From: Candidatus Sumerlaeales bacterium
Lineage (GTDB): Bacteria > Sumerlaeota > Sumerlaeia > Sumerlaeales > Sumerlaeaceae
Length of the DNA stretch: 42,338 nucleotides
Direction of reading: 5' to 3'
Assembly (NCBI GenBank): GCA_038243585.1
Contig: JBBSQY010000028.1
Location: 1 to 42,338 of the forward strand
Shown: piece after piece, positions 25,776-41,336 of the stretch
Numbering within the stretch: the first letter of the stretch is position 1
Layout: each line of letters begins with the position of its first letter
Notes under the pieces: model-generated
Database searches by the model: none
Seen by the model: only the letters and a program-made list of their open reading frames with translations
What the model was told of the DNA's origin: nothing
Translations under genes and position numbers: made by a program

Positions 25776-25852
<77 letters not shown>

Positions 25853-29704: not shown

Positions 29705-30643
29705 CTACTTGTCGCCCCCAGCAAGGAGGTAGAGGACGGCCATGCGGACTGCGATACCGTTTGTGACCTGTTCATTTATCGCTGAGTGTGGACCATCAGC
29801 GACCTCCTGGCTGATTTCAACGCCCCTGTTTACTGGTCCGGGATGCATAACCAGCACATCAGGCTTTGCCCACTTCAGGCGCTCGGCGTCCAGTCCGTAA
29901 AGCAACCGATACTCCCGGATACTTGGGAACAGATTTGCCCGCTGGCGTTCGAGTTGGATTCTTAGAAGATTAATGACATCGACACCGGCAATGCCAGATT
30001 TAAGCGAATGATGTATCTCGCATCCTAGCTTTTCATAATACCGGGGCACAAGTGTCGGAGGGCCAACGAGTCGCACTTTTGCGCCTAATTTCGTCAGCGC
30101 ATAAATGTTGCTTCGAGCCACGCGGCTGTGGAGAATGTCTCCGACAATAGCTACCGTAAGATTTTTGAGCGAGCCCTTTTTTTCGCGAATGGTGAACGTA
30201 TCCAGCAGCCCCTGCGTTGGGTGCTCGTGCGCACCGTCGCCCGCATTGATCACACTCATTTGCAGGCGTTCAGATAGCAGATGCGGGGCTCCTGGACAGG
30301 AATGCCGCATAATCACATAATCAACGCCCATTGCCTGTATGGTTCGCGCCGTATCAAGAAGAGACTCGCCCTTGGATACGCTGCTGGTAGAGACGTTAAA
30401 TCCCACTACATCTGCGGACAATCGCTTTGCGGCAAGCTCAAAGGAGGTGCGCGTTCGGGTGGAATTCTCAAAGAAGAGACTGCAGACGGTCTTTCCCAGG
30501 AGCGTCGGAACCTTTTTAACGCTGCGAGTAAAAACTGTCTTCATGGCCCCTGCGCTATCCAGAATTTGCAGTATTTCATCTGCTGTTAAATCCTCAAGAC
30601 CAAGCAGGTGCTTACGGTTTGTGAGAGTTGTCTTGTTCGTCAA
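29705..30643 (-). CDS. pyrB: Aspartate carbamoyltransferase catalytic subunit
   Basis: [37 protein letters not shown]. Confidence 0.96.
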
Positions 30644-30726: not shown

Positions 30727-30755
30727 AAAAAAAAAGCCGCCTTTCGGCGGCTTTT
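30727..30755 (-). terminator. Intrinsic terminator after the small lipoprotein genes
   Basis: Minus strand AAAAGCCGCC-GAAA-GGCGGC followed by 9 T. Confidence 0.9.
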
Positions 30756-30773
30756 CGTATGAGACCATCAGCG

Positions 30774-30992
30774 TCAATAATAGGTCCGGCAGGTGGCGAA
30801 ATCAGCGCCGTTGTAGGAATCGGCGGGAGCATAGGGTTGTCTTACGGATGGACCGCAAGTTCCATTGCCTCCGCTACATCCGCCCAAGGCAGGAGGCGGT
30901 GGAACCGCGCAGCCAGGAGCTACATAGCGCTGAGTGGCGCAGCCAAAAAGGCTAACCGACGCCAACCCAACCAGAAGTAATTTGACTACCAA
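30774..30992 (-). CDS. Small Cys/Pro/Gly-rich lipoprotein (72 aa)
   Basis: TTG start 2 nt after the upstream stop gives MVVKLLLVGLASVSLFGC (lipobox LFGC); terminator follows 18 nt after the stop. Confidence 0.65.
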   Translation of the reverse strand: MVVKLLLVGLASVSLFGCATQRYVAPGCAVPPPPALGGCSGGNGTCGPSVRQPYAPADSYNGADFATCRTYY

Positions 30993-30994
30993 TT

Positions 30995-31183
30995 TTAGTA
31001 CTGACCGACTGGCGCGCATGTTGGCGTGCAAGGTGCAGCTGGTGTGCAGCTAGCGCCGCAAATGCGAGCTGGTGAGTAGTCGTACAACGGATACGGGTAG
31101 CATTTCGTGCTAGCCGTCTGGCAGCAAGCCGCCAAAACTGTTGCAGCTGCTACAGCAAGAAAACCAAGTTTCACAAACTTCAT
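30995..31183 (-). CDS. Small Cys/Pro-rich lipoprotein (62 aa)
   Basis: GGAGGT RBS 7 nt before ATG 31183; MKFVKLGFLAVAAATVLAAC (lipobox LAAC); 7 Cys in the mature part. Confidence 0.8.
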   Translation of the reverse strand: MKFVKLGFLAVAAATVLAACCQTASTKCYPYPLYDYSPARICGASCTPAAPCTPTCAPVGQY

Positions 31184-31404
31184 GTGATTTACCTCCAAAG
31201 ATATTTTTGTTAACCTCGGGGACGAATTCGTTGTCCAAGGGATTGGAAATCAAGGGAAAAACGACCTTAAACGAAAAATGTTTTGCGAATCGGGAACCTT
31301 TCTAAAGGTTGTCAGGCTGTCAGACTAGACAGTGGCTCTTGTAACCTTTTATATCTCTCTGACATTTGCCTCTGATTCCACACTTCCGGTCGAAAACCGG
31401 ATAT

Positions 31405-31443
31405 AAAAAAACGACTTTCATAGGTGCTTACTATGAAAGTCGT
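31405..31443 (-). terminator. Intrinsic terminator of pfp
   Basis: 13-bp perfect stem ACGACTTTCATAG/CTATGAAAGTCGT, 7-nt loop, T-tract on the minus strand. Confidence 0.85.
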
Positions 31444-31473
31444 CTTGAGAAAGAGGATGCCTGCTTTAAATAC

Positions 31474-40883: not shown

Positions 40884-41336
40884 CTATCCCCAAACATATT
40901 GTTCCTCATATTGCACTTCATACTCTTGCAAGAACTTCCGAAACTCGTCCTGAAATGTCACACGCCGGTGATGTTCCTCTTGTGAATCTATATAGGTCAC
41001 CAATTCTTTAAGGTAACGTGGACTCACCGAAAATGCGCCATAACCGCTCTGCCAGGCGAACGTCTCCAAACCTGGAGCTAAAGGTTTTATCCATTTTGAT
41101 GAGGTGGTTTTTAGTTCTTCAATTATACCGGAAACCGTAGCAGTGCTTTTTAACCGGACGGCCAGGTGGACATGATCATCAATTCCGCCAACACGATAGC
41201 ACTCAGAACCGGACGCCCGGACCACTCCGGCGAGGTAGGCATGGAGCTTTGGACGAACAGATTCAATAATGAATGGTCGACGCTCCTTGGTGCTGAAGAT
41301 GATATGGACGAGAATAAACGACAACGATTGTGCCAT
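40884..41336 (-). mobile_element. tnpA: IS200/IS605-family Y1 HUH transposase (TnpA), no tnpB
   Basis: HIIFSTKERRP, DHVHL (HUH), FAWQSGYGAFSVS, YIDSQEEHH (catalytic Tyr, Gln); 150 aa. Confidence 0.9.

Follow-up and report, generated by a model that had tools for sequence, protein, structure and literature searches.

Two very small open reading frames lie side by side on the minus strand of contig JBBSQY010000028.1 (assembly GCA_038243585.1) of a Candidatus Sumerlaeales bacterium, and they raise the question of whether they are genes at all and, if so, what a pair of tiny, cysteine- and proline-rich lipoproteins would do in its envelope. The whole 42,338-nt contig was analysed and is referred to here as the window; the genome assembly to which it belongs, G000, is 89.7% complete with 3.6% contamination. 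ORF1 (30995..31183, minus strand) encodes a 62-aa predicted lipoprotein with the lipobox LAA-C20 and a mature part of 43 aa containing 7 cysteines. ORF2 (30774..30992, minus strand) begins with a TTG codon 2 nt beyond the ORF1 stop, and encodes a 72-aa predicted lipoprotein with LFG-C18 and 5 cysteines. In both cases the prediction is based on a lipobox, a basic n-region and a hydrophobic h-region.

The pair is flanked upstream by gap-tpi-pfp and downstream by pyrB. An intrinsic-terminator-like hairpin followed by a T tract (31408..31446, minus strand; −20.0 kcal/mol) closes the gap-tpi-pfp run and lies 224 nt from the ORF1 ATG, while a second such hairpin (30731..30756, minus strand; −18.7 kcal/mol) closes the two-gene unit. 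The conserved downstream neighbour, pyrB (aspartate carbamoyltransferase; 29705..30643, minus strand), is one for which we claim no functional link to the pair. Comparison of upstream regions picks out a −35-like TTGATT behind a T tract (31248..31253, minus strand), suggesting a promoter, then the heptamer GAGGTTA near the putative mRNA start (31211..31217, minus strand) and the Shine-Dalgarno sequence GGAGGT of ORF1 (31191..31196, minus strand). All 16 aligned ORF1 upstream regions keep the T tract with TTG, GAGGTTA some 36 nt further on and then GGAGG, the last two being invariant. A preliminary description of this locus had reported the two adjacent ORFs, their lipoprotein signals, cysteine counts, 2-nt gap, Shine-Dalgarno sequence and hairpins, all of which we find as stated, and had proposed that the pair is its own transcription unit; the conserved promoter-like element and leader, with hairpins on both sides, support this. 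GAGGTTA is not enriched as a genome-wide signal (233 copies, comparable to similar words), and a similar GGTTAGGAGG is found ahead of the B2 genes described below. Rfam gave 6 matches, all sub-threshold and all on the downstream terminator. Elsewhere in the window, a tRNA-Ile(GAT) adjoins the PBP1a gene (25776-25852), and an IS200-like transposase (40884-41336) lies close to the window end.

Taken alone, this pattern of ORFs and terminators is weak evidence for genes: when small ORFs were filtered for a lipobox, a Shine-Dalgarno site and at least 8% cysteine, 7 passed in the genome, compared with 4 in a single equally long sequence simulated with a Markov model, and the terminator scan returned 3 sites against 2.3 expected. 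It is conservation across family relatives that marks ORF1 and ORF2 as real genes. One or both lie directly upstream of pyrB in 11 of the 12 other genomes of the host family (f1, whose named relatives are Candidatus Sumerlaeaceae); by profile search, ORF1 orthologues sit beside pyrB in 10 of these 12, and ORF2-type genes occur in 8. ORF1 is found without ORF2 in G003, G011, G012, L185 and L188, and an ORF2-like gene stands alone in G010. In G008 the contig stops inside pyrB, and no true match to either ORF was found. Our phylum set comprised 75 genomes, 13 of the host family (G000 included) and 62 others, and among the 62 there was no real match to either profile. Six weak profile matches, five in the 62 and one in G008 (L064, L065, L078, L079, L081 and L083), were rejected as signal-peptide or off-frame. 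In the pyrB neighbourhoods of 40 relatives (30 loci read), the pair is likewise present in the host family only.

Wider searches gave a similar picture. A scan of 185,579 genomes yielded 10 loci, nine titled Sumerlaeota, Sumerlaeaceae, Sumerlaeales or BRC1 and the tenth Bacteroidetes (L049). The latter is probably a mis-binned contig, since it has the Sumerlaeaceae gene order and its pyrB nests within that family; its ORF1 shows an apparent frame change near the end. HMMER against 1.84 billion representatives gave 4 matches, a 90%-identity database held 42 ORF1 clusters and 9 ORF2 clusters, and neither exact sequence occurs among 15 billion catalogued proteins. ORF1 and ORF2 match nothing in Pfam, NCBIfam or the PDB (0 PDB matches with both alignments), and members of the ORF1 alignment gave scattered weak NCBIfam or Pfam matches only. 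A viral scan, with pyrB, returned nothing. Judged by titles and the start of abstracts, the accessible literature on Sumerlaeota lipoproteins and cell envelopes has nothing on these proteins, and the accessible part of PMC8092238 contains nothing on envelope lipoproteins.

The conserved synteny is with pyrB. Synteny between pfp and pyrB had been suggested as a check, and while the link to pyrB is kept, pfp lies immediately upstream in G000, G002 and G009 only among the loci read; nuoA-C intervenes upstream in G003, G004, G007, G011 and G012 (G005 and G006 are left out of this comparison). A second suggested check concerned selection. Over residues 27-42 of ORF1 (31058..31105, minus strand; defined on 47 aligned homologues), pN is 0.00 against a pS of 0.48-0.87 for 5 of 14 relatives, such that this 16-residue core shows no amino-acid change while 48-87% of its synonymous sites differ; for the other nine, pN is 0.05-0.28. 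Mature ORF2 has a pN of 0.08-0.29 against a pS of 0.64-0.86 in all four relatives compared. The frames are thus conserved, with purifying selection on the ORF1 core and on mature ORF2, and we conclude that both ORFs are genuine genes under purifying selection.

The lipobox cysteine is invariant (47/47 ORF1 and 18/18 ORF2 homologues), and the conserved part of the mature protein is a KCYPYPxYDxSP(R/K)xC core, 6-9 residues from the lipidated cysteine, in which Y29, P30, Y31, Y34, S37, P38 and also K27 are invariant in all 47 aligned homologues; position 40 is R in 29 and K in 18. These non-cysteine residues are conserved better than the cysteines, of which C21 is retained in 43 of the 47, C28 in 43 and C42 in 45. 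Cysteine is nevertheless abundant, at a mean of 17.5% of mature ORF1 (proline, 16.3%) over the 47 homologues and 16% in the window ORF1, and 43 of the 47 carry 5-9 cysteines in the mature part. The spacing C-x3-C-x5-C-x3-C, to which the preliminary description drew attention, is present in the window ORF1 but is found in just 3 of the 47 homologues, and it sits in a variable tail that runs from 4 to about 30 residues past C42. Three homologues lack C28 yet retain the +2 cysteine and C42, and another, P0005, keeps the core with only its lipid cysteine left, C21, C28 and C42 all being lost. That C28 is lost alone in three homologues, while P0005 has lost all three, suggests that the +2 cysteine may pair with C42 to close a loop, with C28 free.

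Aspartate at +2 is absent in all 42 ORF1 clusters. Their C-terminal residues are K (15), R (10), Q (7), Y (5), F (3), N (1) and P (1), so that the terminal tyrosine pointed out earlier, true of both ORFs here, is a minority state for ORF1; the Tyr- and Gln-ended forms are one clade on the pyrB tree (support 90/98). Six of the 42 clusters end in Cys-Lys. A tether through a terminal lysine was considered for ORF1 and dropped, given that just 15 of 42 clusters end in K, a share no different from that among larger lipoproteins (p=0.37). Codon use in ORF1 resembles that of 21 ribosomal-protein genes (z=3.5, a value that none of 2000 synonymous draws reached), unlike that of ORF2 (z=1.0). AlphaFold2 gave a mean pLDDT of 55 for ORF1 and 49 for ORF2, with low confidence beyond the signal helix, and prediction of an ORF1-ORF2 complex scored 0.01, which is no usable answer. 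In the ESM Atlas, ORF1 reached a best value of 0.91 (157 shared features) with unnamed lipoprotein clusters commonest in Planctomycetota, and ORF2 stayed below 0.9; we treat both as leads only. The walls of planctomycetes have a high Cys and Pro content.

Judged by profile comparison, ORF2 is a diverged tandem paralogue of ORF1. A DxSPxR motif is present in 9 of 18 ORF2 sequences, and these align with mature ORF1 (hhalign 89.9%, E 1.7e-6); the window form of ORF2 has lost the motif, and its C-terminal half aligns with the motif-bearing form (hhalign 96.4%). Four ORF2 sequences, moreover, beat all 1,500 shuffles on the mature-ORF1 profile. It is this chain of alignments together with the shuffle test that points to a tandem duplication as the origin of the pair. 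ORF2 has a conserved C-terminal motif of its own (residues 54-72; 30777..30833, minus strand), W/Y-x3-D-x-YN-x-AD-x2-T-x-R-x-Y-hydrophobic, which does not match the VxDWxLY export tag of this genome. The ORF2 family averages 11.6% cysteine, and none of its 18 aligned members ends in lysine. ORF2 is missing throughout genus g2, a pattern of loss in one genus.

A census of G000 for further small Cys/Pro lipoprotein ORFs with Shine-Dalgarno sites found the families B1 (G000:C20:24461-24649, plus strand), B2 (G000:C20:24788-25006, plus strand), B3 (G000:C17:16217-16381, minus strand) and C (G000:C9:42282-42572, minus strand, and C71:8366-8662, plus strand), as well as two singletons. The B1, B2 and C profiles are found in 12, 12 and 10 of the 13 family genomes, respectively, and in none of the 62 others; B3 is found solely in the Tyr/Gln-ended clade (G000, G002 and G009). 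G010, which is 66% complete, is without B1, B2, C and the short YkuD enzyme described below. Every genome copy ends in lysine (B1 12/12, B2 12/12, B3 3/3, C 11/11; 38/38 overall) after tails that vary, and all 27 B copies end in Glu-Lys. It is important to note that, because the copies are related, 38/38 represents three or four lineages and not 38 trials. In the database 32 of 34 B1 clusters end in lysine, both exceptions being long forms, although the B1 profile includes the terminal residues and so bears on this count. The background is lower: lysine ends 13 of 50 lipobox proteins of larger size and, among long proteins, 199 of 1844 (10.8%). B1, B2, B3 and C are candidates for wall tethers of the Lpp kind, and as a lead they are arguably stronger than the window pair itself. 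Their relation to the pair is not visible as homology (hhalign probability for mature ORF1 against B1, 11%), and B1 and a family-C copy show no high-expression codon bias.

Some details of these loci are worth recording. We looked for synteny of the B1/B2 pair with prmA and rejected it, as 0 of 9 relatives' prmA loci carry them. The two family-C copies, on C9 and C71, share their neighbours and are probably one locus from two strains; the near-duplicate loci G000:C9:39500-45500 and C71:5500-11000, and BamA on both C2 and C95, probably reflect strain mixture. Small Cys-containing lipoprotein ORFs with Shine-Dalgarno sites also lie at G000:C37:23614-23754 (minus strand), directly upstream of a pilM-like gene, and at G000:C2:124432-124689 (plus strand), the latter with a likely relative in G004 (L086). 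The paralogy of the pair, its aromatic/proline core and the Lys-ended families elsewhere in the genome all go beyond the preliminary description.

What envelope would such proteins serve? The host family is diderm, by BamA (13/13 genomes) and LpxC (12/13), and has PBP1a, a MurC-type ligase, L,D-transpeptidases and Pal. As Pal is kept in the family (it is not assembled in G000), the family is not without a tether; Lpp (PF04728) was found in none of five family genomes. Lgt is present in 4 of 5 and was not found in the 89.7%-complete G000. YkuD matches are more numerous in the 13 family genomes (2-9, median 4) than in the 62 others (0-2, median 1), and OmpA-like domains are fewer (median 1 against 4.5), the latter being a count that includes MotB and may track flagella. 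Since both counts describe one clade they amount to one event and cannot show co-evolution. The sole OmpA-like domain in G000 (C47:216-506, minus strand) closes a frame of 863 residues that has a long linker rich in Pro and Thr.

G000 has 9 YkuD matches, and among 4 scanned none reaches an LdtA/B/C-type cut-off. One is a short, secreted, single-domain protein (G000:C8:19949-20344, minus strand) of ~110 aa when mature, which keeps the catalytic His and Cys and ends in RVFVYP; it is found at 54-72% identity in 10 family genomes (orthologues L199-L201 and L203-L208). Orthology was judged on 16 stretches, which also hold three family paralogues and two ends of another, long enzyme from other families, the pattern used not capturing those of G004 and G037. 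This short YkuD is a candidate enzyme for attaching the Lys-ended lipoproteins. With respect to thiol oxidation, VKOR is present in 5 of 5 family genomes, and the three read carry a CxxC domain at its C-terminus (a VKOR-thioredoxin fusion); DsbB was not found in the family, and a DsbA-like Thioredoxin_4 occurs in 6 of 13 genomes. The fusion gene adjoins an lgt match in L189 (G007) and in G004:C18:73740-75597. The LptD models PF04453 and PF19838 match nothing in 5 of 5 family genomes, though a divergent LptD could escape them; as LpxC and BamA are present, the LPS translocon may be highly divergent.

A search for an OmcB/DUF11 partner, suggested earlier, did return one match to an OmcB Pfam model, a DUF11-repeat protein that is the sole PF03504 match in the genome (G000:C39; 35.3 bits, cut-off 34.1), but it is unlinked to the pair and has 13 Cys in 689 aa (1.9%). 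Secreted DUF11-repeat proteins at G000:C39:26238-28307, C24:24587-27385 and C67:3-1274, and in L104, have a common Lys-rich C-terminal domain with an ECNE motif, and the C39 protein and its G009 relative carry a CxCC linker between repeats; these may represent a sorting domain or a thiol partner.

The reading we prefer, to which we give somewhat less than an even chance, is that these proteins build an outer-membrane scaffold that is held together by disulfides and peculiar to this lineage. Within it, the sister families would be Lpp-like wall tethers and the window pair untethered subunits. After lipidation at C20 and C18, the pair would be delivered to the outer membrane, as the absence of Asp at +2 in 42/42 ORF1 clusters would allow, with ORF1 present in quantity and ORF2, produced through translational coupling, as the minor partner. 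Periplasmic oxidation would then close the loop between the +2/+3 Cys and C42, displaying the YPYPxYDxSP core and leaving C28 and the tail cysteines free for bonds to other subunits, and the core would dock on a conserved partner, be it itself, a sister lipoprotein or a barrel protein. In B1, B2, B3 and C, the Pro-rich spacer and terminal lysine would act as an L,D-transpeptidase acceptor as in Lpp, while ORF1 and ORF2 would have no tether, much as YqhH, an Lpp paralogue, has Cys but not the Lys. We place the pair as the untethered part because the sisters bear an Lpp-type anchor mark and the pair does not. The weakest step is that the pair joins the sisters in one scaffold, which is proposed on composition, signal style and shared range, not homology. 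A disulfide-bonded envelope scaffold had already been put forward for the pair; it is our best reading too, and it is still what we infer rather than what we observe. A bolder form of this proposal, which we think possible but on balance unlikely, is that all six Cys/Pro lipoprotein families make up a kit that serves the family as a covalent outer-membrane tether of its own invention, with no relation to Lpp: a disulfide net like the chlamydial envelope, with four families nailed down through lysine by the family-specific minimal L,D-transpeptidase, and the pair as untethered organising subunits.

The conservation of non-cysteine residues, and of the core in P0005 without any non-lipid Cys, is more in keeping with a docking peptide than with a net of disulfides alone. 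In the main rival reading, ORF1 and ORF2 would be LptM-like accessory peptides serving a barrel or secretin of the outer membrane, their anchored invariant motif plugging into the machine while the tail is dispensable. In its favour, the invariant core is only 6-9 residues past the lipid Cys, the tail can shrink to 4 residues after C42, P0005 has no non-lipid Cys, and LptM acts via a short N-terminal motif, according to the accessible part of 10.1101/2025.01.03.631273. Yet neither ORF matches LptM or any other NCBIfam or Pfam family, none of the loci read has a barrel gene next to the pair, and LptD went undetected by its models in 5/5 genomes, though a divergent one may be missed. Furthermore, ORF1 codon bias suggests bulk amounts, and the pair is limited to one family while barrel machines are phylum-wide. 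We consider this reading unlikely. The invariance of K27 in 47/47 homologues, when position 40 swaps freely between R and K, invites another explanation, in which ORF1 is tied to peptidoglycan via this internal lysine in the manner of Coxiella LimB; such tethers are on record in the available portions of 10.1101/2024.09.03.610988 (LimB) and PMC11841132 (Lpg1810). We are sceptical, and think this distinctly improbable, given that a residue so close to the lipid anchor is probably too near the outer membrane for wall contact, that ORF2-type paralogues have no Lys at that position, and that the homologue-finding method may account for part of the invariance.

The remaining explanations take their cue from the cysteines or from the size of the genes. 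Lipid-anchored metal or redox buffers, binding Cu or Zn on free thiols as metallothioneins do, would suit the 5-9 cysteines of most mature ORF1 proteins, and LimB is reported as metal-binding in what is accessible of PMC11841132. The residues that are invariant, however, are Lys, Tyr, Pro and Ser; the tail Cys spacing is conserved in just 3/47, and the motif quoted earlier belongs to the variable tail. None of the loci read has a metal gene or a regulator next to the pair, and thiols, once exported, would be oxidised by the VKOR-thioredoxin fusion. This makes a metal buffer very improbable. Tandem tiny lipoproteins are known from the entericidin locus ecnAB, which the insulated two-gene unit recalls, and the pair might by the same token be a toxin and its antidote or, as the preliminary description had it, ribosomal lipopeptide precursors. 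To this we give hardly any credence. Either gene can occur alone, the locus is stable beside pyrB and not patchy, there is no Pfam match and no amphipathic helix in the mature parts, and the loci read show no modifying enzyme next to the pair, DUF692 (PF05114), the MNIO type that goes with Cys-modified RiPP precursors, being present in one of five genomes and absent from the other four, G000 among them.

Of the scaffold that we prefer, the genes and their Lys-ended sisters are solid, and the mechanism is inference. To our knowledge, Pal, OmpA and OmpM are the only means of holding the outer membrane described for most diderm phyla, and lipoproteins bound to the wall through a final lysine are reported solely from a gammaproteobacterial subclade. 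If the scaffold is real, wall tethering through a last lysine evolved more than once, here in a distant uncultured phylum, and Lpp-like tethering can be combined with chlamydia-style disulfide cross-linking. It would also supply a search rule for other phyla: a tiny lipoprotein with a variable tail and an invariant terminal Lys. Should the gene-level result alone hold, these are new lineage-marker small genes, now annotated as hypothetical.

How, then, does the pair compare with known systems (sources include the accessible part of PMC2811131)? The preliminary description offered chlamydial OmcA as an analogy, and as an analogy it stands. According to the available text of PMC1403754, OmcA is a small lipoprotein with an SPII signal and about 15% Cys, OmcB having 4.4%; ORF1 and ORF2 likewise have a lipobox Cys and fewer than 100 aa, with envelope disulfide cross-linking proposed. 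Beyond this the likeness ends: PF03503 (Chlam_OMP3) matches in 0 of 5 family genomes at E<=0.1, the neighbour of ORF1 is a paralogue with no omcB in the operon (the flanks being pfp and pyrB), the host family has the PBP1a, MurC-type ligase, L,D-transpeptidases and Pal named above, and conservation centres on the Tyr/Pro core and not on cysteines. LptM (YifL; NF047847) is also a tiny lipoprotein with a short conserved motif just past the lipid Cys and a variable tail, although its CGLKGPLYF-type motif and NF047847 are absent here, where the pair has another motif and many cysteines. Coxiella LimB is lineage-specific too, and its internal-Lys wall tether parallels the invariant K27, which in ORF1 is very close to the lipid anchor.

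The closest parallels to the proposed division of labour come from the Lpp group. In the accessible parts of the sources, Lpp is reported in four gammaproteobacterial orders only (10.1101/2021.05.31.446380), the Lpp box needs one terminal Lys and no more than one (10.1101/2024.09.03.610988), and Salmonella LppB, which ends in -RICK, forms a disulfide dimer that is wall-bound via its terminal Lys, while YqhH is Cys-bearing and Lys-less (10.1101/2025.11.13.688167; PMC12681736). The window proteins and their sisters are similarly short; the sisters are Lys-ended, those 6 of 42 ORF1 clusters with a Cys-Lys end resemble LppB, and the window pair, with Cys and no terminal Lys, resembles YqhH. The -RTYY end of ORF2 is near the Dickeya Lpp box VRTYKK (in the same accessible part of 10.1101/2024.09.03.610988), probably by chance. 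Unlike Lpp, a coiled-coil trimer, the pair and its sisters are Pro/Cys-rich and non-helical, with no PF04728 match, and ORF1 and ORF2 end in Tyr, not Lys. The pair thus belongs to neither the OmcA nor the Lpp/LppB/YqhH set; by analogy, it resembles OmcA in size, anchor and Cys content, and Lpp, LppB and YqhH in what would be a system of tethered and untethered members.
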